Sequence record: NC_052653.1
DNA: 64,000 nt
DNA from: Escherichia phage vB_vPM_PD06
Direction: 5' to 3' (one strand)
Shown: in pieces, positions 3,227 to 53,429 of the stretch
Position numbering within the stretch: position 1 is the first letter of the stretch
How the letters are laid out: every line of letters begins with the position of its first letter
Program-made: the position numbers and the translations under genes
The notes under the pieces: model-generated
What the model saw: only the letters and a program-made list of their open reading frames with translations
Databases searched by the model: none
Told to the model about the DNA's origin: nothing

Positions 3227-3242
3227 GGGGCGTTGCCGCCCC
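3227..3242 (-). repeat. GC-rich intergenic hairpin (element family, hairpin only)
   Basis: GGGGCG-TTGC-CGCCCC. Confidence 0.45.
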
Positions 3243-3250
3243 TTTGTTGA

Positions 3251-3550
3251 TTAGATCGCTGTTTCCAGTAGTTCGGCTAACGTCTTACCGCCTGATAGTT
3301 GGTCTAACGTTTGCTCTTCTGGCAAGAAATTAGCTGATATTAAACCGACTTGATTCCCTTTGTGCCAGTTAGCCTGGCGGATGATTCCATCCTTTAAAGA
3401 TTTTACCGCCATTGTGCAACCGTCGCCAAATGATTCATTTTTATGATCCATTACTTCATAAGCGCCCAGCTTGCTGCTGTTAGGCACCATTAACGCGAAT
3501 ACATCACCAACAACCAGTTTTTCTACGGTAACAATAGCGATAGTTTCCAT
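3251..3550 (-). CDS. Hypothetical protein (99 aa)
   Basis: Six-frame ORF. Confidence 0.6.
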   Translation of the reverse strand: METIAIVTVEKLVVGDVFALMVPNSSKLGAYEVMDHKNESFGDGCTMAVKSLKDGIIRQANWHKGNQVGLISANFLPEEQTLDQLSGGKTLAELLETAI

Positions 3551-3568
3551 TTTACTTTCCTCATTATC

Positions 3569-3607
3569 GGCGGCACCATTGCCGCCCTACGTGGTAAATA
3601 TTAGCAC
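3569..3607 (-). repeat. Conserved box+hairpin intergenic element
   Basis: GGCGGCA-CCA-TTGCCGCC then CTACGTGGTAAATATTAGCAC. Confidence 0.6.
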
Positions 3608-3631
3608 ACTGGCGATCTGTGTCAATACTTT

Positions 3632-4018
3632 TTATTCAATATAAATCAAATTATCTTCACCAATGTAAGCCGACACGTTCGGCATAAACTTAGCTGCATT
3701 GGTTAGGCGGTTCGCCGTGTTAGTGGTGTATATTTCAGGGCGATCCCAAAAGCCTACGCCGTGACCGTTACGGGTAAAATGTAAATCATTCCCGATCTGG
3801 TTGGCTGTTGCGCCGTCGCTCATTGCCTCAGAGATAGCGGCAAGATTAGCATTAATAAAGGCTGTTACATCCTGGGCGATCCGTTCGTCCGCGCTAGGAG
3901 AAAAATCATAATCGTCTAAGTTTTCAATAAAATTACCTTCATGATCCCTTGCTGATTCAGCAAAAATAAAGGCTTCTTTATAACCGTTGATGATTTCAAT
4001 AATCATTTCTGTTTTCAT
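3632..4018 (-). CDS. Hypothetical protein (about 128 aa; start uncertain, track ORF extends to 4105)
   Basis: Internal ATG at 4018 (MKTEMIIEI) preferred because the longer N-terminal extension overlaps a separate small ORF. Confidence 0.5.
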   Translation of the reverse strand: MKTEMIIEIINGYKEAFIFAESARDHEGNFIENLDDYDFSPSADERIAQDVTAFINANLAAISEAMSDGATANQIGNDLHFTRNGHGVGFWDRPEIYTTNTANRLTNAAKFMPNVSAYIGEDNLIYIE

Positions 4019-23139: not shown

Positions 23140-23616
23140 ATGTCTAAACGTTTTGGTCGTAATCAAAAAAGAAAGTTAAGTGCTCAACTAGCAGCTTTGC
23201 AAAAAGAGGTTAACACTTTACAAAAAAGTGTTTGTGAACTTAAGGAACAAAACCAACTTGAAAAAGAGTGTATTCAGCTTACACAGGAAGTTATTGGGGA
23301 GTATTTCCCTTCACTAATTCCTAAGAAGGTGGCTCTTAGGGAAAATCTACCTTTTACCTTATCCTTGATGCAAACAAGGGATAGATTCCAAACTGAAACT
23401 GATGATTTGATGTTTGCAATGCATCAATTACGTGGTTTAGAATATACAGCACAAGTGGATAAACTTCGCAACATGTTATATGTGCGGGTAGAAACACCTA
23501 AAGGTGAAACAGTAGCGTTTAATTATAATTTCCAACAGCTACCTGATCATATTATTGAACAAATTTTAAAACGAGATTTTGTTCCTATGCTTGTTAAACA
23601 AATTAAGAGAGGTTGA
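23140..23616 (+). CDS. Hypothetical coiled-coil protein (158 aa)
   Basis: Six-frame ORF. Confidence 0.65.
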   Translation: MSKRFGRNQKRKLSAQLAALQKEVNTLQKSVCELKEQNQLEKECIQLTQEVIGEYFPSLIPKKVALRENLPFTLSLMQTRDRFQTETDDLMFAMHQLRGLEYTAQVDKLRNMLYVRVETPKGETVAFNYNFQQLPDHIIEQILKRDFVPMLVKQIKRG

Positions 23617-23617
23617 A

Positions 23618-26392
23618 ATGGCTAAGAAAGAGTTGAGTTTTACTCCAACAGAAGAGCAAACAGCTATTAAGGAGGCTTTTCCAGATCATCGGTTTTTAAC
23701 TATCCAAGCTAAATCTGGATCAGGAAAAACGTCAACACTTTATTTGCTGGCTAACAGTACAGAAGATCGCATTCTTTACTTAGCTTTCAATAAAAGCATG
23801 GCAGAAGAAGCACGGCGTAAGATGCCACCAAATGTAGAATGCCGTACATTGCATTCCATTTGCTATCAATTCCTGGATCATCGTTTACGTGCAAAACTGT
23901 CCCGACCAGAAGGACAGTATGTTAACGTTGCAGGTACAGGTAGTGAGATAGCAAAGAAATTTAAGATTAATAATCTTATTGATAAACGAGGGAAAACACT
24001 TTTAACTCGTGCTATGATTGGTTTAATGATCAAGCAAACCGTAGGTAAGTTTGAATTTTCGGATGATCCTTTTATCAGCCGTAAACATTTTCCTAGTGTA
24101 CATCTTGCAGATATTAAAAGAAAAGGTATTAACGAACACAAACTAATTACAGAAGTAGTTAAGTATGCAAAACAATTGTGGCGAGAGCGCATTGATCCTA
24201 ACACAGATACTTTGATGACGCATGACACCTATGTAAAATTGTTTGAATTGTCTGGTGCTGATCTTGGTTATGACATTATTTTTGGGGATGAATTCCAGGA
24301 TGTTAACCCTGCATTCTTGTCTATTCTGCGGAATGCTAAATCTGCCAAACAAATTGTGGTAGTTGGTGATGAATTCCAATGTGTATCAGAAAACACGGTA
24401 CTTAATACCGAAAATGGTCAGGTTACAATGAAAGACCTGCAAATCGGTGATAAGGTAGAGTCTTATTCTAACGGTAAAGTTACATTTAGAAAAGTAACAA
24501 ATAAGACTTTATCTACACGTACAAAAGGTAGGAATATTATTACTGCTAAAGGTAAGACTTTAGATATGACACATAACCATCGTATTTGGGCTTCACCTTA
24601 TGTTCTGAAAGATGATCAGATGGTGGTATACCTAATGTGGAGAAAAGATTTAGGTTTCCGAGTAGGGATCACTAACAAATTCGATGATAAAGAAGGTTTT
24701 TCTAAACTGGGGCAACGTACACGTTCTGAAAAAGCACAGAAGTTGTGGGTGTTGGATATTGTTGAAAACCGTGAAGCTGCTATGGAAAAAGAAATGGCAT
24801 ACAGTTTACAATATGGCATTCCTACTTGTGTATTTGAAGCAAGTTCACGCGGTATTAATCAAGAAAGGATCAACAATATCTTTGAACAATTCGGACAAAA
24901 TGGTTTTAAACTTTTAGAGGATAAAGACTATCATTTTGCTTATCCACATTGGCACAGCATCAATTGTGCAGTAGATGCAAGAAAAATGTTAACAGTGACT
25001 TTGCGAGCACAAGGTTGTAAAGGAACACAAGTTAGCTTTGAGTGGACAGAAAGTGAAATGCCAATCTATGCCTCACTCATTGAAGCAGGTGTAAGCGTAA
25101 GTGTTGCTAAATTGGAAGGTCGTTACCGTGTACGTAAATATTTCAATTCTTATCGTGAAGCATTGAGTTTTGCACAAAAGATCCTTGAAATAGTTCCGTT
25201 TGCATCTTTAAAAGAATGCATGTCCTCTGTGAACACTGCCAAATATAATTTAATTCCGGCAGCGGGTTTGTTTAAAGGCATGTCTGTGTTAGTAAAAGAT
25301 GGTGATACTGTAACGGCAGAAGAGATTGTGGACATTGTAGATAGTGAGGGTATCTATTATGATATTGAAGTAGAAGATACTGCTAACTTTTTTGGCAATG
25401 AAATTCTTAGCCACAACTGCATTTATCAATTTAGAGGTAGCTCTAATATGATGATTGAAACAGCTAAGTATGGGGCAGAGCTTCCATTAACTGCTTGCTT
25501 CCGTTTTGGCCCCAAAGTGGCAAACATTGCAAATATGATTTTAAGTGATAAAGAACCTTTGCGTCATCCTTTGGTTGGTAAAGGCTTTGATACTGTAGTA
25601 GGTAGCTACAAATCAGATGTTGTAGACTATACAAAACCTTACACTATCATCTTTCGCAAGAATTTAACCTTGCTTATGGAGGCAATGGATCGTATTGCAG
25701 ATGGGGAAGAAATTATTATTAACGTAGATACCAGGGATTTTATCTCTATGGTGGATAGTGTTAATGCCCTTCGGAGAGGAGATATTGAGAAAGTAAAACA
25801 TGAAACTGTATTACCTTACGCAGACTGGAATGAATTTGTTGAATGTGCAGAGGCTGATCCAGATGCTAAACGCTTGTTAAACATTGTAGTTTCTGGTAAG
25901 GCAAATACTATAGCACATACACTTAGAACGCATAGAAATTCTCCTACAGCAAAAGTCACACTGACTACAGCACATAAGTCTAAAGGTTTGGAGTGGGATC
26001 AGGTTATTGTTGCTAATGATTTTCCTTCCAACTATGATAAAAAGACTGGTGAATGGGTAGGACTAGAAGAGGCAGAGCGAAACCTACTGTATGTAGCGCA
26101 CACCCGTTGTGTTAAATGCTTACAATGGAATACAACCGTACAGGAGATTATAGATATCAACCGTGTTGCAACAGAGAAAGTACCCACAAGCCCTACTTTA
26201 CCGATCAATGGTATTAAACTTGGTGTATTTGGCGCTGGCACATCTCGAAAAACTGTAGAAAAATTTGTTGCAGATTCTTTTGATGGTAACTATAATCATG
26301 CACAAGCATATGAGAGTTGGCTAGAGGAAGGTGAAGGTGATTTCTTAGGTGAAATAAATCTTTTACCAGACATAAATAAACTGGTAAACTAA
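23618..26392 (+). CDS. SF1 UvrD/Rep-like DNA helicase, intein-containing precursor
   Basis: Walker A AKSGSGKT; DEFQD; motif III split (VVGDEFQ / CIYQFRGSS); motif V TTAHKSKGLEWD; motif VI LLYVAHTRC. Confidence 0.8.
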   Translation: MAKKELSFTPTEEQTAIKEAFPDHRFLTIQAKSGSGKTSTLYLLANSTEDRILYLAFNKSMAEEARRKMPPNVECRTLHSICYQFLDHRLRAKLSRPEGQYVNVAGTGSEIAKKFKINNLIDKRGKTLLTRAMIGLMIKQTVGKFEFSDDPFISRKHFPSVHLADIKRKGINEHKLITEVVKYAKQLWRERIDPNTDTLMTHDTYVKLFELSGADLGYDIIFGDEFQDVNPAFLSILRNAKSAKQIVVVGDEFQCVSENTVLNTENGQVTMKDLQIGDKVESYSNGKVTFRKVTNKTLSTRTKGRNIITAKGKTLDMTHNHRIWASPYVLKDDQMVVYLMWRKDLGFRVGITNKFDDKEGFSKLGQRTRSEKAQKLWVLDIVENREAAMEKEMAYSLQYGIPTCVFEASSRGINQERINNIFEQFGQNGFKLLEDKDYHFAYPHWHSINCAVDARKMLTVTLRAQGCKGTQVSFEWTESEMPIYASLIEAGVSVSVAKLEGRYRVRKYFNSYREALSFAQKILEIVPFASLKECMSSVNTAKYNLIPAAGLFKGMSVLVKDGDTVTAEEIVDIVDSEGIYYDIEVEDTANFFGNEILSHNCIYQFRGSSNMMIETAKYGAELPLTACFRFGPKVANIANMILSDKEPLRHPLVGKGFDTVVGSYKSDVVDYTKPYTIIFRKNLTLLMEAMDRIADGEEIIINVDTRDFISMVDSVNALRRGDIEKVKHETVLPYADWNEFVECAEADPDAKRLLNIVVSGKANTIAHTLRTHRNSPTAKVTLTTAHKSKGLEWDQVIVANDFPSNYDKKTGEWVGLEEAERNLLYVAHTRCVKCLQWNTTVQEIIDINRVATEKVPTSPTLPINGIKLGVFGAGTSRKTVEKFVADSFDGNYNHAQAYESWLEEGEGDFLGEINLLPDINKLVN
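24380..25417 (+). mobile_element. Intein (346 aa) in helicase motif III
   Basis: Starts Cys after DEFQ with N-terminal splicing blocks (CVSENTVLNTENG..., TxxH in DMTHNH); ends SHN followed by Cys of CIYQFRGSS. Confidence 0.7.
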
Positions 26393-27687: not shown

Positions 27688-28638
27688 ATGATTGCATTTT
27701 ACGCTAATAAACTGGAAGTTAAAAAAGCAGCAGAAGAGATGGGTATCCTGCATATTCTTAACGAAGCAATTCACAAGAGTTTTGGCTACACAACTGAAGC
27801 AGAAATCAATGATCTGATTCACAGTGTTAATGATTTGTTCTTCTACCCTAACTTTCTACAGCAGTTAGATGGTTGTGGATTTGAATATATGGAACTTCAT
27901 CCTGAATATACATTTATGGAAGTAACACCTGAAAATTTTCTGGAGATTATTCGTACTGAATATCTTGCTAAAGAGGATAAAGAAAAAGATATGGCTGAAA
28001 AAGTACAACTGACTGTGCATAATACGTGTTTCGTGGATACTGATGCCACGGAAGAAGATATTAGTTATCTGCTTTCCGTTTGTAATCCTCGTTGTCCACA
28101 ACCACATTGGAAAAATGCAGATCATTATCTAATGTATTCAAATGAAGAAAACATTACTTTCTTCGATGAAAACAGTGGTATTAATGGTGCACATAAGAAT
28201 TCTCCATATCGGAAAGATCGGTTTGTAGTTGATGTAAAAACATTTACTAAACTGTTTGAGGAGTATTATTCAAAAGATGAAAGTAAAACTGAATCTTCAC
28301 CAAAACCACGTTTTCGCCGACCGCGTAAACCTGTACCTACTCGTTCTGTAAGTTATGTTCGTATCATTTACACTACACAGCAGGTATATACTCTTAAGAA
28401 CGTAAGTGTTCTTACTGTACAAGAAGATGCAATTAATATTGTGCGCAATAATGTTATTACAGAGGGTATTGAGGAAAAGATTATGTCTGTTATCGATCCT
28501 AAACTTGTTATGGCAATCATTATTAATGAACCAAAAGGTGTAACAACATTGTTCCGAAATATTCATGGTACTTGGGAAACTCAAGTTGACGGTTTGACTT
28601 CTGATGGTTGTACACGTATTACCAAAAACCTTGACTAA
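27688..28638 (+). CDS. Hypothetical protein (316 aa)
   Basis: GAAGGAG RBS. Confidence 0.65.
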   Translation: MIAFYANKLEVKKAAEEMGILHILNEAIHKSFGYTTEAEINDLIHSVNDLFFYPNFLQQLDGCGFEYMELHPEYTFMEVTPENFLEIIRTEYLAKEDKEKDMAEKVQLTVHNTCFVDTDATEEDISYLLSVCNPRCPQPHWKNADHYLMYSNEENITFFDENSGINGAHKNSPYRKDRFVVDVKTFTKLFEEYYSKDESKTESSPKPRFRRPRKPVPTRSVSYVRIIYTTQQVYTLKNVSVLTVQEDAINIVRNNVITEGIEEKIMSVIDPKLVMAIIINEPKGVTTLFRNIHGTWETQVDGLTSDGCTRITKNLD

Positions 28639-28686
28639 GATCAAGGACAATCTTACGAAAAAGATTTAAAATAAAGATCCACCCTA

Positions 28687-28716
28687 AAGCCAGCTTAATG
28701 CTGGCTTTTATTTTCC
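28687..28716 (+). terminator. Intrinsic terminator
   Basis: AAGCCAGC-TTAAT-GCTGGCTT then TTATTTTCC. Confidence 0.55.
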
Positions 28717-28727
28717 ACGGAGGATTA

Positions 28728-29585
28728 ATGACCCAAAAACTATATGAGGATGTAATCGGATTCCTCGAACAAACATCCGAAGAATTTACTCGTGAAAATG
28801 CAAACAAACCTGCAATGATTGTTAATACTCACCGAGACTTACTAGCAGGTATCCTAAGCAAGCACATGGCAATGACCCATATTTTACCGGAAGATCTGGC
28901 AGAATGGCATAAAAGCGGGTATGGTCACATTCACGATTTAGATTATTTACTCTCACCTCTAACTAACTGTTGCCTGGTAAATTACCAAGATATGCTTGAG
29001 AACGGTTTCCGTATTGGTAATGCACATATTGAAAAACCAAAATCTATCGGTGTAGCAACTACTGTCCTAACTCAAATTATTCAAGCAGTGGCTTCTAGCC
29101 AATATGGTGGACAAACTTGTGCACATATTGATACTGGGCTTAGTCAATACGTTAAAGCAAGTTTTAATAAAATCTATGCTGATGTTGGTGATTATGATAT
29201 TGCTATGCGTATGGTAGATAAACAGGTGTACGATGCAATGCAAACTTTAATCTACCAGGTGAACACCCTAATGAGTGTAAATGGTCAGTCACCTTTTATA
29301 ACAATTAGTTTAGGTTTGGATACCTCTGCTTTTGGTAGAATGATCACTAAAAACTACCTAATGGTGCACAAACAAGGTTTAGGGAAAGATAGGGTAACTC
29401 CTGTATTTCCTAAAGTTATCTTCTTCTTGGAAGATGGTGTTAACATGAAAGCTGGCGATCCAAACTATGATTTGAAGCAACTGGCAATGGAGTGTTGTGC
29501 TGAACGCATTTATCCTGATTTTATCTCTGTACCTTTAAACAAAGAAGTTACAGGATCTTCAGATGGTCGCGTCACAAGCATGGGT
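28728..29585 (+). CDS. nrdD: Anaerobic ribonucleoside-triphosphate reductase, exon 1
   Basis: ATG at 28728 after GGAGGA RBS; class III RNR N-terminal half; exon ends ...VTSMG at U29585. Confidence 0.8.
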
Positions 29586-29875
29586 AAACTATAACTGCTC
29601 ATGTAAAATCTGCCTAAACGGGGGAACTCTCAACGAGACAATCCCGTGCTAAACGTAACAGAACTCCCAACACAGAAGAAGGGTTATGATTATGAGTTCT
29701 GTTACGAAATGCCTAACGACTAGCTGTGATGAATGTAGCAGCGTAGGGTGTAAGCCTATGACACCCCAAATGGTAGACATGCTTTAAGCATGAAGATATA
29801 GTCTGATCTGCATGGTGACATGCAGCAGCACGTAATGGTGCGAGAGTGGCCTTGCGAACCACTTTGAACATAATG
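29586..29875 (+). mobile_element. Group I self-splicing intron (290 nt, no ORF) in nrdD
   Basis: P1 exon CAUGGGU pairs with internal guide GCUCAUG (29597-29603) with U-G at splice site; P7 GACUA (29718-29722) / UAGUC (29799-29803); S-like AAGATATAGTC; P9 hairpin CTGCATG-GTGA-CATGCAG (29808-29825); terminal G at 29875. Confidence 0.75.
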
Positions 29876-30817
29876 TGTAGAAGTTTCTTGTCATACTATG
29901 CAACAGAGCAAGGTGAAAAATATGATGGTCGTTTCAACTTAGGCGTAGTTTCTTTAAACTTACCTATCATTGCAGCGGAGTCCCGTGAAAAGGGCATCTT
30001 ATTTACTGAACTGTTGGAACAACATATGGAGATGGCGTATAAGGCACATATGCTACGTGTTAACCGTATTAGACATACCAAAGCATCTCAAAACCCTACA
30101 TTGTTTATGGAAGGGGCTTTAGCTCGACTAGAAGCTAATGAAGAGATTGGTAAACTATTTGAAGGTGGTTATGCCTCTATTAGTATCGGTTATGTAGGTT
30201 TAGCAGAAGCTATGGAGATTTTATACCCAAATAACACCAATCCAAAAGCAATGGGTAAAAACATCCTTCAATATATGAAGGATATCTGTTGCACATTTAA
30301 AGAACGTTCTGGTTTAGCTTTTAGTTTGTATGGAACACCAGCAGAATCCTTGTGCTATAAATTTGCCAAAGCGTTAAATGATCGCTACCCTGGTTCTATT
30401 GATCGTGACTACTTGACAAACTCTTTCCATCAACCTGTATGGATGCACACTACCCCGTTCCAAAAATGGGATTATGAGGAAGGTTTTGCACAAATTAGTA
30501 ATGGTGGGAACATAGGTTATGTAGAAACACCGAACCTTAAAAATAACTTGCAAGCACTGGAAACTCTTGTAGATTATGCCTACAATAAAATTCCTTATTT
30601 TGGCGTGAACCAACCTGTAGATCAGTGTTTCAAATGTGGTTTTCATGGTGAATTTAAAGCAACGGCTAAAGGCTTCGAGTGTCCAAGTTGCGGTAATCAT
30701 GAAGAAGAATCCATATCTGTGATCAGAAGAGTGTCAGGATACCTTTCTGCCCCTAACTCTCGCCCTTATAACAAAGGTAAAATGCAAGAGGTACTAGAAA
30801 GGGAGAAACATTTTTGA
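29876..30817 (+). CDS. nrdD: Anaerobic ribonucleoside-triphosphate reductase, exon 2
   Basis: Frame resumes at CRSFLS...DGRFNLGVVSLNLP; C-terminal CxxC zinc site (CFKCGF...CPSCG). Confidence 0.8.
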   Translation, partial: CRSFLSYYATEQGEKYDGRFNLGVVSLNLPIIAAESREKGILFTELLEQHMEMAYKAHMLRVNRIRHTKASQNPTLFMEGALARLEANEEIGKLFEGGYASISIGYVGLAEAMEILYPNNTNPKAMGKNILQYMKDICCTFKERSGLAFSLYGTPAESLCYKFAKALNDRYPGSIDRDYLTNSFHQPVWMHTTPFQKWDYEEGFAQISNGGNIGYVETPNLKNNLQALETLVDYAYNKIPYFGVNQPVDQCFKCGFHGEFKATAKGFECPSCGNHEEESISVIRRVSGYLSAPNSRPYNKGKMQEVLEREKHF

Positions 30818-49490: not shown

Positions 49491-52400
49491 ATGGGAGCTT
49501 TTACTTTCGACATTGAAAGTAACAACTTGCTTAATGACGAAAGTGTAGATTACTTGGCAAGTCCATATCGTTTAAAAGATAGTTTTGCAATGCACTGTAT
49601 TGTGTGCGAAAGTCATGATACTGGAGAGATTATTGCTTTCCATGATGGTGATAAATATCTTTTCGATGGTCGTCCGTATATTGAGACTGACGGAAAGTAT
49701 GAATACCGACTGGAGGAATATGAGCATTTAGAATATACCCATTTCCCTCTTAAAGATTTTCCTGATTTTGTAAATGGAACAGGTAAATTTAAAGGTAATT
49801 CAAACTATAAAATTACCAAAGTAGTTGGACACAACATCATTAACTTCGACTTACTGGCAATTAAATTATTTTTTAAACTCAACTACAGTATTAAGTACAA
49901 TACTTGGGGTAATAGTAACATTGAAATTTGTGATACTATGATCTTAAGTAAGACACTAAACCCTGATCGCTTCGGTGGTCATAGTCTGGCAGAGTTATCT
50001 AAGAAAGCTGGAGGGGATGTTAAAATTGATTTTAGAAAAAACATTCCTGAAACTGAAAGATTTAGAACATTTGCAGCAGATATGCTGTATTACTGTATTT
50101 ACGATAACAAAGCTAACACCGCAGTGTTCCGTTATTTGATGGAAGAGTGGGGTGATTATAACAAGTGGTCTGAACCATTTAACTTAGAACAACGTGTAGC
50201 TGATATTATTACACGTCAAGAGCACCGTGGCTTTGCTTTCAATATGAAACAAGCAGAAGATAATATTCGTGATCTGGATGCTCGAATGGAAGCATGTCGT
50301 TTAGAGGCAGAACCTGTGCTACCTCCTAAACCTGCTACTAAAGGTTATTTGAAATCATTCATTCCACCTAAACTACAGTTTAAAAAGAATGGTGAGCCTT
50401 CAAGTAACATGATAAAGTTTGCAGAGAAACATTCTGGTGAACTTGTACAAAAAGAAGATGGTTGGTGGTTATTTGCATTAGGTAAAGAGTTTAAACTACC
50501 TATTCCAGCAGAAGAACCTATTTGTGATCCTACAGTACCTGCTACTTTAGACGACACTACACATATTAAAAATTGGTTAGTTGGTTTAGGTTGGAGTCCA
50601 TCTGAATATAAAGATAAAGATATCACTCTTAAATCTGGCACTAAGATTAAGAAAGATGAAGCACAAATGGAGAAAGCTATTCGTGACTATGTTGATCAAA
50701 CATTAGCATCTAACTTCTGCCAGGATAGATGTGATCATCTGGAGTGCACACCAGAAACTTTGGAATGGAAACTAAGAGATCGTATTGCTAAAGCTAAAGG
50801 TCGTGGTGTTAAAGTGCTTACTAACCCTTCCTTTACAAAAGGGCAAGAGAAGGATATTTGTCCTAACTTGGAAGCACTGGGTGAAAAGTTCCCTTATGCT
50901 ACGCAGATTGTGCAGTATCTTACGTATAAACATCGTAGAAACTCTATTCTAGGTGGTGGTGCTGATTGGGAAGAGGATGAAGAGGATTACGATAAAGGTT
51001 ATCTGGCGGCAGTAAGAGCTGATGGTCGTATACCAACTCCTGCTGCAACGTGTGATGCAGCTACGTCTCGTATGAAACATAGGTTAGTAGCAAATATCCC
51101 ACGTGTAACATCTCTGTACGGATATGAAATGCGTAACTTATTTGGTGTAGAAGTTCCAAAATACTTCCAAATTGGTTATGACTTTGATTCTCTTGAGGCA
51201 AAAATAGAATCACACTACTGTGTACCTATGGATGCACAAGCACTAACCCGTAAAGGTTGGGTTGGTTATCACGATCTACAAGAAGGGGATGAAATCTTAG
51301 GATATAACCCAGAAACAGGACTTAAAGAATGGACTAAAGTAAAAGGTAAGGTCTTCTATAAAAATAGTAAGACGTTTGAGATTAAAGGAAAATCCCATAC
51401 TTATCGTGCAACAGCAGATCACCGTTGGTATGTTAATACTCGTAGTACAGGGAATACTTATGTGCCTAAAGTCAGAACAACTGCCGAGCTTTGCACAGGA
51501 GATAACATTATTTGTAATGCTCCATTTAACATGGAACAAGATCAAGTAAATAGTTTAACTTCTGTTCAACAAGGTAAATGGGATGTTCCGTGGGTAGAAC
51601 GTGTAGTTAATATGTCTCATGCCGAGCGTGTGGCTTTCTTGGAAGGTTTTTTGATTGCGGATGGTTACTGGCACAAACATAAACAAAAACCTGTTTGGCG
51701 CTGGGCGCAGAACCCAGGAGAACTTTTTGAAGCAGCCTTAACTGCCTCATACCTGGTTCATGGGGGTAATATTTCTGTAGCCTTCAATACGAAAGACCAG
51801 AAAGTAAAAGTGGCAACGTTGGCTAACCGCTCTCACATCCCTGTTCAAAGTCTGACTATTGAAGAATGGGGTGTAGAAGATGTTTGGTGTCCACAAACAG
51901 AACTCGGTACATGGGTTATGCGTCAGAAAGACTGCATCACGATTACAGGGAATTGTTGGCGGTACGAGCAGGAACCACACGAATATTGTAATGCTCTATT
52001 GTTGGAAAAACCTAATGATGTTCATACAATGATGGCTCGACGTATTTCTGACACTATTGGTCGTAAGTTTGAACGAAGCCCTGCTAAATCTGTTAAGTAT
52101 GGTATTACTTATGGTGCTCAAGCTGCAAAAGTAGCAAAAACTATAGGTAGTGATATGTATACAGGACAGCTTGTATACGATGCTTTCTGGGAAGCTGCAA
52201 AACCTCTTGCGCTTCTTAAAGAACGTCTGCATGACTTTTGGGTTAAAACAGGTAAGAAATACATTCTTGGTATTGATGGTAGGAAAGTACCTACACGATC
52301 TGCACACGCAATACTTAACTCTCTGTTCCAGAGTGGTGGTGTTATTTGTGCAAAAAGAGCAATGGTTATCTACGATGATCTTATCGAAGAAGAAGGATTA

Positions 52401-52805
52401 GCTGTTGACTTTTTTGTTGATGACTGGAAAAATAAGTCATTCGTTCAACAAATGATTGCATATCACGATGAAGCACAGCTTGAAGTAACTCGTGATCTGG
52501 TGCATTTTAAATGGTTCTCTAAAGAATCTTTAGGTTGGACTCAAGTTGATGATCCAGAAGAACAAAAGAAAATTGATAAAGAATGTTTGGATAAAGTTAA
52601 TGCCTGGAAAGAAGAGGAAGAGAAACGTACTGGCAAGATTTGGGCTAACGTACATGAATCTCCGAAAGGTGGTTGGTTTACAGCCTACAGTCGTGCTGGA
52701 GAATTAGCATCTATCGCTGTTAATAAAGCTGGTGAGTATTACAATCTTAATGTACCTCTAACTGCTGGTTACGATGTTGGTAGTTCATGGTCAACTTGTC
52801 ACTGA
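49491..52805 (+). CDS. Family A DNA polymerase, intein-containing precursor
   Basis: Exo I TFDIES; motif A GYDFDSLEAKIESHY; motif B RSPAKSVKYGITYGAQ; motif C IAYHDEAQ. Confidence 0.85.
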   Translation: MGAFTFDIESNNLLNDESVDYLASPYRLKDSFAMHCIVCESHDTGEIIAFHDGDKYLFDGRPYIETDGKYEYRLEEYEHLEYTHFPLKDFPDFVNGTGKFKGNSNYKITKVVGHNIINFDLLAIKLFFKLNYSIKYNTWGNSNIEICDTMILSKTLNPDRFGGHSLAELSKKAGGDVKIDFRKNIPETERFRTFAADMLYYCIYDNKANTAVFRYLMEEWGDYNKWSEPFNLEQRVADIITRQEHRGFAFNMKQAEDNIRDLDARMEACRLEAEPVLPPKPATKGYLKSFIPPKLQFKKNGEPSSNMIKFAEKHSGELVQKEDGWWLFALGKEFKLPIPAEEPICDPTVPATLDDTTHIKNWLVGLGWSPSEYKDKDITLKSGTKIKKDEAQMEKAIRDYVDQTLASNFCQDRCDHLECTPETLEWKLRDRIAKAKGRGVKVLTNPSFTKGQEKDICPNLEALGEKFPYATQIVQYLTYKHRRNSILGGGADWEEDEEDYDKGYLAAVRADGRIPTPAATCDAATSRMKHRLVANIPRVTSLYGYEMRNLFGVEVPKYFQIGYDFDSLEAKIESHYCVPMDAQALTRKGWVGYHDLQEGDEILGYNPETGLKEWTKVKGKVFYKNSKTFEIKGKSHTYRATADHRWYVNTRSTGNTYVPKVRTTAELCTGDNIICNAPFNMEQDQVNSLTSVQQGKWDVPWVERVVNMSHAERVAFLEGFLIADGYWHKHKQKPVWRWAQNPGELFEAALTASYLVHGGNISVAFNTKDQKVKVATLANRSHIPVQSLTIEEWGVEDVWCPQTELGTWVMRQKDCITITGNCWRYEQEPHEYCNALLLEKPNDVHTMMARRISDTIGRKFERSPAKSVKYGITYGAQAAKVAKTIGSDMYTGQLVYDAFWEAAKPLALLKERLHDFWVKTGKKYILGIDGRKVPTRSAHAILNSLFQSGGVICAKRAMVIYDDLIEEEGLAVDFFVDDWKNKSFVQQMIAYHDEAQLEVTRDLVHFKWFSKESLGWTQVDDPEEQKKIDKECLDKVNAWKEEEEKRTGKIWANVHESPKGGWFTAYSRAGELASIAVNKAGEYYNLNVPLTAGYDVGSSWSTCH
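51219..51953 (+). mobile_element. Intein (about 245 aa) with LAGLIDADG-like motif, after Pol motif A
   Basis: Begins CVPMDAQALTRKGW; TxxH block TADH; LEGFLIADGYW; ends ITITGN + Cys (non-canonical GN; C-terminal boundary approximate). Confidence 0.65.
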
Positions 52806-52832: not shown

Positions 52833-53429
52833 ATGCTTACCGTGTATGGTGAAGGTATTAATGATTTGGAAGGCGAGAGTACACTACCTGGTAGTAAGAA
52901 ACTAACGCCGCATTATATGAAATGGATGGCTATGTTGGGGAGGTGTTACTCCCCTTGTCAACAAGAACGTGATCCTTGTTATAAGGGGGTGACGGTTTGT
53001 GAAGAATGGAAGTTGTTCTCCAATTTCTATTCCTGGTTGCAAACTTGGGATAACTGGGAAAACTTAGAACTTGATAAAGATATTATAGGAGGGAGAGTTT
53101 ACTCTCCCGATACCTGTCTTTTAGTAACAGGAGATCTTAATAAGTTCTTAGCTTATAGAGTAAGTAAAAGATCTCATGGGACTATGGTAGGCTGTAGTTA
53201 CGAGAAAGATCGTAAAAAGTATAAAGCCAACATAAAAGTAGGCAGTCGCATGAAAACGCTGGGACGTTTTAATACTGAAATTGAAGCGCATCTTTGCTGG
53301 TTGAAAGCTAAGGCAGAGCAGCTTACAAAATTCTTTGAAACTGAAGATGAAAGAGTTGTTCCACATCTTAAAGCACTATGTAATGAAATGCTTGAGCATG
53401 TAGAACAACATAAAGAGTGGACACGATAG
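52833..53429 (+). CDS. AP2-like DNA-binding protein, possible homing-endonuclease relative
   Basis: KYKANIKVGSRMKTLGRFNTEIEAHLCWLKA resembles AP2 domain; no catalytic motif identified. Confidence 0.4.
   Translation: MLTVYGEGINDLEGESTLPGSKKLTPHYMKWMAMLGRCYSPCQQERDPCYKGVTVCEEWKLFSNFYSWLQTWDNWENLELDKDIIGGRVYSPDTCLLVTGDLNKFLAYRVSKRSHGTMVGCSYEKDRKKYKANIKVGSRMKTLGRFNTEIEAHLCWLKAKAEQLTKFFETEDERVVPHLKALCNEMLEHVEQHKEWTR

Follow-up and report, generated by a model that had tools for sequence, protein, structure and literature searches.

The stretch of DNA analysed here (the window) comprises 64,000 nucleotides (nt) of Escherichia phage vB_vPM_PD06 (NC_052653.1), a phi92-like coliphage (Stephanstirmvirinae, Justusliebigvirus), in which the gene of a family A DNA polymerase is interrupted by an intein of 245 amino acids (aa). 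The evidence presented below makes it probable that this element is a splicing-competent, horizontally mobile intein, which belongs to a clade with a working Gly-Asn end, starts splicing in a class 1-like manner and carries a LAGLIDADG unit kept under selection.

Host gene and exact limits of the intein

The interrupted gene is the single DNA_pol_A open reading frame (ORF) detected within the window. The C-terminal part of its product matches Pfam DNA_pol_A (E=1.1e-10), and its nt sequence is 99.2-99.3% identical to the polymerase genes of phi92 (gp159), PD114 and SD2. The ORF is divided as follows:

49491..52805, + strand: intein-containing family A (T7-like) DNA polymerase precursor, 1104 aa plus stop codon (ORF list)
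51177..51218, + strand: motif A and end of the N-extein, YDFDSLEAKIESHY (translation; alignment to T7 DNA polymerase)
51219..51953, + strand: intein, 245 aa, Cys1 to Asn245, polymerase residues 577-821 (735-nt presence/absence, AlphaFold2 (AF2) model, Foldseek)
51954..52805, + strand: C-extein, fingers and palm, including motif B ...KSVKYGITYGAQ, and stop codon

The original prediction had placed an insertion of about 245 aa straight after motif A, and alignment to T7 DNA polymerase (1skr/2ajq) bears this out: D564 (51180-51182) pairs with the motif A Asp of the T7 enzyme, and the insertion point lies 12 residues past this aspartate, in the palm domain. With the intein-less polymerase (E=4.6e-18 to T7 DNA polymerase), 'igYDFDSLEAKIESHY↓CWRY' (the arrow marks a junction or insertion site here and below) pairs with 'aGiDasgLElrclaHF↓MARF', the T7 equivalent of the insertion site being ...LAHF↓MARF. 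Since the intein interrupts the palm, a normal polymerase chain would arise only after splicing.

Alignment with intein-free polymerases, which had been suggested together with the original prediction, fixed the boundaries and revealed near-identical homologues lacking the segment. The whole polymerase gene including the intein is present in 31 of 119 related phage records, and near-identical records without the intein align in two pieces, omitting 22% of the gene. Compared with phage W22 and about 88 other records, the difference is an exact 735-nt indel (the pol gene measures 2580 nt in W22 vs 3315 nt in the window): every base of W22 agrees with the window as far as ...CACTAC TGT, and the match continues from TGT TGGCGG..., giving the product IESHY↓CWRYEQ, and the identity between the exteins of the window and intein-less alleles such as that of W22 is 98.5-99.9%. 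At the DNA level the ambiguity of the boundaries is limited to a 3-nt TGT repeat present at both junctions, and it is settled by splicing chemistry, which requires Cys1...Asn245 followed by Cys+1. The C-terminal boundary, originally given as approximate, is therefore exact. The intein reads CVPMDAQALT...QKDCITITGN, then Cys; the predicted ...ITITGN end with Gly as the penultimate residue is thus present in the translation.

Predicted fold and splicing blocks

The AF2 model of the intein (predicted local distance difference test, pLDDT, 82; predicted TM-score, pTM, 0.80; 8-sequence family alignment) shows a Hint beta-fold with one helix-strand-strand-helix-strand-strand insert. When compared with the PDB by Foldseek, it matched LAGLIDADG inteins best (TliVMA, 7qsu, and PI-SceI), followed by mini-inteins of all classes, and all 46 matches at E<=1e-3 were inteins or other Hint-fold domains (hedgehog, bacterial intein-like). 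The following motifs were located:

51219..51257, + strand: block A, CVPMDAQALTRKG (Cys1 in 126/126 full-length family inteins)
51411..51428, + strand: block B core, T65-A-D-H68-R69-W70 (B:7 Thr, B:10 His, B:11 Arg, B:12 Trp; family conservation)
51573..51851, + strand: single LAGLIDADG-fold unit, aa 119-211 (AF2, Foldseek)
51639-51665, + strand: motif LEGFLIADG, aa 141-149, with conserved D148-G149
51708-51710, + strand: conserved Q164
51882..51926, + strand: block F, VWCPQTELGTWVMRQ, with C224 at F:4 (Asp in class 1 inteins) and no block F His
51936..51956, + strand: block G, I-T-I-T243-G244-N245, plus Cys+1 (51954-51956), with which the C-extein begins

The junction set of an intein is therefore present (C1, T65/H68, N245, C+1), and the Cys start, the TxxH block (T65-A-D-H68) and the LAGLIDADG-like motif of the original prediction were all recovered. 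The penultimate His (G:6) is absent, its place being taken by Gly244, and there is no His in block F (VWCPQTELGTWVMRQ); both residues are common, not obligatory, and functional exceptions have been documented (PMC1635734, PMC5050341, PMC7891396). Blocks F and G were placed by their spacing from the terminal Asn, with the MP-Be intein recovered from gp11 of mycobacteriophage Bethlehem as a reference: the distance of 21 residues from C224 to the terminal Asn is the same as in MP-Be (C320/N341), Msm DnaB1 (118/139) and Mle DnaB (124/145). The sole fast-evolving, low-confidence part of the intein is the linker that joins the Hint N-lobe to the LAGLIDADG unit (aa 101-118; 51519-51572; pLDDT about 49 at aa 111-120; non-synonymous divergence, dN, 0.34 vs KP13-16), and in two-unit relatives the first LAGLIDADG unit is placed at this position.

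The segment might also be regarded as a lineage-specific structural insertion that is retained in the mature polymerase, given that it is matched by none of the curated intein and Hint models of Pfam, NCBIfam and PHROGs (the sole Pfam match is LAGLIDADG_3, E=0.084). These profile libraries being silent, the identification rested on comparative genomics and structure prediction, and both make a structural insertion extremely improbable. The segment is exactly missing from polymerases with 98.5-99.9% identical exteins, which already refutes this explanation; it has a confident Hint fold and every splice-junction residue; the same module occurs in unrelated proteins, always from Cys1 to Asn followed by Ser, Thr or Cys; and it has moved between genera together with flanking co-conversion (see below). 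Its identity as an intein, as originally proposed, is thus upheld by its absence from near-identical polymerases and by the match of the model to TliVMA and PI-SceI.

A large family of related inteins

A word-indexed search retrieved nine relatives only; a profile search of 1.84 billion cluster representatives retrieved 8079 at E<=1e-3 and 567 at E<=1e-30. Conservation was scored in 126 full-length single-unit inteins (228-281 aa) from the best 150 proteins:

A:1, Cys1: 100%
B:7, Thr65: 100%
B:10, His68: 100%
B:11, Arg69: Arg or Lys in 95%
B:12, Trp70: 99%
F:4, Cys224: 100%
G:5, Thr243: 100%
G:6, Gly244: 99%
G:7, Asn245: 100%
+1, Cys in the window: Ser in 64, Cys in 31 and Thr in 31 across the family

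The combination H-(R/K)-W...T-G-N was found in 118 of the 126. These inteins form a large phage-borne clade with a common signature: (i) Cys1, (ii) T-x-x-H-(R/K)-W in block B, (iii) V-W-C in block F, and (iv) T-I-T-G-N in block G, followed by Ser, Thr or Cys. The Gly-Asn junction had been noted as uncommon; it is present as described, but it is a trait of the family and not peculiar to the copy in the window.

The same scaffold is found in mini-inteins (138-165 aa) and in two-unit forms (about 300-375 aa), all of which are Cys-initial; among the mini and two-unit forms listed, the TGN end occurs in all but one. The family occupies at least 10 different insertion sites in unrelated proteins, for example:

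small phage protein, FDVYP↓SAYANGW
family A polymerase motif B, K..YA↓TLYGAG
polymerase TGR..↓SPN loop
polymerase motif A, ..HY↓T/C (the site in the window)

Some phages carry a member of this clade at a different position of the same polymerase. In nieznany (NC_052659), ukendt, nepoznato, phiWec187 and AV126, the motif A site has no intein and shows Thr where the window has Cys+1. These phages instead have a two-motif intein of 324 aa from the same clade at motif B (nieznany pol aa 633-956), which reads SVKYG↓CVPVDNTE...FITLTGN↓CTYGAQ. A polymerase with the motif B intein is also encoded by three unannotated records labelled as Campylobacter jejuni phages (MG065639, MG065645 and MG065689; 'Campylobacter phage A150/A145/A110a'). 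Their tblastn scores are identical to those of E. coli Phapecoctavirus phages, which suggests a labelling or host-assignment problem.

The Gly-Asn junction and the block B arginine

Gly-Asn ends have been reported in the Ceu ClpP, Ctr/Cpa (Candida) ThrRS, Pno RPA2 and Cre RPB2 inteins (PMC1635734), in which, as in the window intein, the penultimate Gly replaces His; these inteins are eukaryotic or organellar, and no sign that they share the block F Cys or the B:11 Arg with the window intein was obtained here.

When the endonuclease was removed from the family profile, the best sequence match of the remaining Hint domain in the PDB was the AceL NrdHF split intein (E=1e-6). This intein (PDB 6zgq) has H68-R69-M70, C124 and T144-G145-N146, and is without the block F and penultimate His; its Arg69 lies 2.5 Å from the C-scissile carbonyl, the R69A exchange slows splicing, and G145H abolishes activity, with a modelled clash with Arg69 (PMC7891396). 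It has in common with the window intein the H68-R69-x70, F:4 Cys and T-G-N module and the lack of both His residues. In contrast, AceL NrdHF is experimentally class 3, with Ala1, Met at B:12 and Ser+1, and is naturally split without an endonuclease domain, whereas the window intein has Cys1, Trp70 and Cys+1 and is contiguous, with a LAGLIDADG unit.

A second informative relative is the RDF intein, which we located in gp52 of mycobacteriophage Bethlehem (C1, ...NHRV..., ...EVWCLRV..., ...HLTGN↓S, the Cys lying 21 residues before Asn) and which matches the family hidden Markov model (HMM) with E=4e-13. It resembles the window intein in Cys1, the block B His-Arg, the block F V-W-C and the L-T-G-N end, and differs from it in its length of 317 aa, two LAGLIDADG units, Val at B:12, and another host protein and phage lineage. 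The RDF intein splices fast and completely in E. coli, where its endonuclease is toxic; the G316H exchange slows splicing to >5 h for 50%, and the intein was treated as class 1 by Kelley et al. 2016 (PMC5050341).

By analogy with these relatives, Gly244 would be a selected partner of the basic residue at B:11, and hence a working feature rather than a degenerate junction. Arg69 most likely replaces the usual penultimate His, and Gly244 would leave space for the Arg side chain.

Mechanistic class

Class 3 inteins have been defined by a WCT triplet, composed of Trp at B:12 (two positions past the block B His), Cys at F:4 and Thr at G:5, and by the absence of an N-terminal nucleophile (Tori et al. 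2010). The original prediction had overlooked the block F Cys, which together with W70 and T243 completes this triplet beside Cys1. In the MP-Be class 3 intein recovered from Bethlehem gp11 we reproduced the published numbering (P1, H65, W67, C320, T339, H340, N341, T+1), and the family HMM places its H-x-W onto H65/W67 of MP-Be. In the window intein the triplet is complete: W70 lies two residues past H68, C224 lies 21 residues before N245, and T243 occupies G:5. The absence of an N-terminal nucleophile that is expected of class 3 does not apply, since all 163 clade inteins examined, whether mini, single-unit or double-unit, start with Cys1, and neither does the Asp at F:4 that is usual in class 1, where Cys224 is 100% conserved.

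The MP-Be 'DnaB' (gp11) and Msm/Mch DnaB1 inteins share with the window intein the residues W (B:12), C (F:4) and T (G:5) at identical spacings, and they too come from phages. Unlike it, they start with Pro1 or Ala1, end with T-H-N and reside mostly in P-loop ATPases, whereas the window intein combines an invariant Cys1 and a T-G-N end with a polymerase host.

The presence of Cys1 in all 163 inteins indicates that the residue is in use, so that splicing most likely begins at Cys1, as in class 1. Cys224, invariant at the site where the class 1 Asp coordinates both junctions, would have to be important as well, by forming a relay thioester or by assisting catalysis. The splicing pathway that we propose consists of the following steps: (i) an N-S acyl shift at Cys1 most likely starts splicing, class 1 style, (ii) Cys224 would accept the acyl group as a second thioester, or replace Asp in coordinating the two junctions, and (iii) Asn245 would cyclise and Cys+1 would complete the ligation.

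In a class 3 mechanism, Cys224 would instead attack the N-terminal scissile bond to form the block F branched thioester, the N-extein would pass to Cys+1, and Cys1 would be dispensable. The full WCT triplet at the defining positions, with spacings as in MP-Be, Msm DnaB1 and Mle DnaB, speaks for such a pathway, as does the experimental class 3 assignment of AceL NrdHF, the nearest solved relative by sequence. Moreover, three WCT inteins with Ser1 or Cys1 were listed and left without a class by Tori et al. 2010, and a later paper from the same group described the N-terminal nucleophile as 'not required' in class 3. We nevertheless consider a class 3 mechanism rather unlikely. A dispensable residue should drift, yet Cys1 is invariant in the 163 clade inteins; accepted class 3 inteins bear a non-nucleophilic residue at position 1; and Thr65 (B:7), which is not required in MP-Be, is 100% conserved here.

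It is also doubtful, in our view, that the element represents a two-nucleophile intein (with a relay from Cys1 to Cys224 to the +1 residue, or with redundant entry points) combined with a homodimeric single-unit homing endonuclease. A two-nucleophile state was judged by Beyer et al. 2020 to be too improbable to have existed, and the convergent evolution of the Hint fold was hence proposed.

The host protein of the MP-Be 'DnaB intein' deserves a separate remark. Bethlehem gp11 (AY500153, 7260-9971) adjoins the portal gene on its upstream side, and because of this position it is probably the large terminase. The annotated DnaB-like helicase of Bethlehem, gp62, has 273 aa only and no intein.

The LAGLIDADG unit

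The assignment of the insert to the LAGLIDADG type was borne out at the level of the fold, with the refinement that it constitutes half of a canonical two-motif intein endonuclease. Modelled alone (aa 119-211; 35 sequences), the unit reached a pLDDT of 92.3 and showed an alpha-beta-beta-alpha-beta-beta core in the order helix-helix-strand-strand-helix-strand-strand. Its Foldseek matches include I-CeuI, the PI-SceI endonuclease domain, WhiA, I-DmoI and I-OnuI (probability 0.93-1.0, TMq 0.50-0.63, E-values 0.015-0.2), the weak E-values being due to the small size of the domain; the top matches are mostly of the LAGLIDADG fold, accompanied by some de novo designed and unrelated proteins.

Canonical intein endonucleases have their motifs in blocks C and E. 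The single unit aligns to the second LAGLIDADG unit of the nieznany motif B and Bethlehem RDF inteins, and the first unit is missing. PI-SceI, TliVMA and PI-PfuI are built like the window intein, with a LAGLIDADG domain inserted at the same loop of the Hint fold (TliVMA and PI-SceI are the best matches of the whole model), but they are monomeric with two units (blocks C and E) per chain, whereas the window intein has one.

Several residues of the unit are strongly conserved in the family: D148, the acidic, metal-binding residue near the close of the motif, in 89%, G149 in 98%, and Q164, at the end of strand 2, in 98%. We take Q164 to be the counterpart of Gln47 of I-CreI. Between the window and phage anhysbys the unit differs by 15 synonymous and 3 non-synonymous changes, and in the comparison with KP13-16, which is more distant, the unit and the Hint N-domain have the same dN (0.063 each). 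The unit is thus under the same purifying selection as the splicing domain and is not decaying.

One unit provides one active site, and a homodimer is therefore the simplest route to a double-strand break; I-CeuI, the best structural match of the unit, is a homodimeric enzyme. The most likely role of the single unit is that of a homing endonuclease which, as a homodimer, acts on polymerase alleles lacking the intein. We found no relevant literature on single-motif LAGLIDADG inteins, which is absence of evidence only.

Selection, mobility and the neighbouring HNH gene

Comparison of the window with anhysbys revealed 52 synonymous vs 6 non-synonymous differences in the intein (ratio of non-synonymous to synonymous rates, dN/dS, 0.024). 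Together with the viability of phi92 and PaulScherrer, which carry the identical intein, this low ratio suggests that the element is competent for splicing.

The distribution of the intein among near-identical phages is sporadic. The window phage and anhysbys belong to different genera, and the nt identity of their inteins is 92% vs 68-82% in the exteins. The pol genes of anhysbys and of nieznany, a member of the same genus, show 95-100% identity over their length, but next to the insertion site anhysbys has window-type alleles instead, over ~40 nt on the upstream side and ~80 nt on the downstream side (CWRYEPEPHEY, for instance, in place of TWRYDNPDHAY in nieznany). Such a co-conversion tract is what homing through the repair of a double-strand break would be expected to leave, and it shows that the intein was transferred by gene conversion. 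The divergent flanking sites also form a second run, around the motif B intein site of nieznany.

Downstream of the polymerase lies a further gene that might contribute to mobility:

52833-53429, + strand: free-standing HNH endonuclease-like gene (phrog_953, E=2e-73; no Pfam match)

This gene is present in the intein-less W22 and nieznany and absent from the intein-containing anhysbys; since its presence is uncoupled from that of the intein, it looks like an independent mobile element. We considered the HNH gene as the main mobilising nuclease and rejected it, because its presence and that of the intein do not correlate and because the intein site, not the HNH gene, forms the centre of the tract.

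According to another explanation, the LAGLIDADG unit would be a decayed or non-nucleolytic remnant with a structural or DNA-binding role, and the intein would spread passively or with the aid of other nucleases, such as that of the neighbouring HNH gene. Half of the canonical two-motif domain is indeed missing, the Pfam match is limited to E=0.084, the target is not detectably palindromic, a gene resembling those of HNH homing endonucleases lies directly downstream of pol, and nuclease-inactive LAGLIDADG folds exist, two of which (WhiA and the bI3 maturase) are among the structural matches. We regard a remnant as possible, though on balance not likely. The constraint on the unit, with equal dN values and 15 synonymous vs 3 non-synonymous changes, matches that on the splicing domain; the Asp-Gly pair and the strand 2 Gln are 89-98% conserved over 126 diverse members; the spread of the single-unit form to at least 10 unrelated insertion sites would be hard without a nuclease; and both the position of the co-conversion tract and the occurrence of the HNH gene in W22 but not in anhysbys dissociate the transfer from that gene.

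Several points weigh against the view of a mobile, splicing-competent intein with a class 1-like start and an active LAGLIDADG unit. The order of the nucleophiles is something we infer, as are the role of Arg69, dimerisation and cleavage activity, and sequence alone cannot order the cysteines. The assignment of C224 to block F rests on spacing, motif pattern and the strand layout of the AF2 model; local HMM alignments to MP-Be and 6zgq covered the N-terminal half only or misaligned the C-terminal part, leaving block F unaligned. The role of Arg69 is carried over from one solved relative, AceL NrdHF, and the nieznany motif B intein has Met at B:11 yet ends with TGN, so the pairing is not absolute. 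With respect to mobility, the co-conversion tract proves gene conversion without naming the nuclease that made the break, and the HNH gene is located 880 nt downstream. The intein-less target showed at best 7 of 11 symmetric positions, the background mode in the gene being 6-7, and so lends no support to a homodimeric enzyme, in a test of low power.

Other elements in the window

The original prediction also counted two inteins and one group I intron in the window, all of them in genes for replication or nucleotide metabolism, and both additional elements were found:

24380-25417, within ORF 23570-26389, + strand: second intein, 346 aa, in a UvrD-like helicase, GDEFQ↓CVSENTV...NEILSHN↓CIYQFRG
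29540-29825, + strand: group I intron splitting nrdD (Rfam RF00028, 70.4 bits, full-length model match)

The helicase intein has a canonical His-Asn end and Asp at F:4, matches Pfam Intein_splicing just below the cut-off, and is unrelated to the polymerase intein clade. The intron is flanked by ORFs 28635-29591 and 29819-30814, which match positions 1-263 and 263-562 of Pfam NRDD (anaerobic ribonucleotide reductase).

Previous annotation

The 245-aa intein is identical in phi92, SD2, PD114 and PaulScherrer, and the genes of PaulScherrer (MZ501100, bas60_0044) and SD2 (PQ821640) have been annotated as 'intein-containing DNA polymerase precursor', with the intein at the same site. The intein, already annotated in a sister genome, is thus no new object, and it belongs to an ordinary kind of element, though some of its details are uncommon. 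The intein mat_peptide in the PaulScherrer GenBank record (3232-3966) is one codon off, extending from Val2 to Cys+1 (VPMD...TGNC instead of CVPMD...TGN), a shift explained by the TGT codon repeated at both junctions. PaulScherrer was isolated on E. coli K-12 for the BASEL collection, and all that the BASEL paper states is that comparative genomics/annotation served to identify inteins; a 2024 paper states that no inteins had been reported in coliphages. The G+C content of the intein (41.5% vs 37-39% in the exteins) is in slight excess and gives no useful signal of transfer.

Implications

The existence of this intein in itself changes little, as the phage group is well known and the intein already annotated. 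The contribution of the present analysis is (i) the family-wide signature of Cys1, the WCT triplet and the Arg/Gly pair, (ii) the single LAGLIDADG unit kept under selection, and (iii) the size of the family, which counts hundreds to thousands of members in metagenomes, and its invisibility to standard profile libraries. Genes of family A polymerases in phage metagenomes that are split by such inteins are likely to be mis-annotated.

The joint occurrence of Cys1 and the WCT triplet unites features that the literature has treated as class-defining opposites. The clade could therefore inform how class 3 splicing arose from class 1, and could show whether the penultimate His can in general be replaced by the Arg/Gly pair. 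A compact intein of 245 aa with a half-size endonuclease could likewise show whether intein endonucleases work as dimers. Cultivable E. coli phages (phi92, PaulScherrer), with natural intein-plus and intein-minus alleles of the polymerase gene, make this a tractable system.

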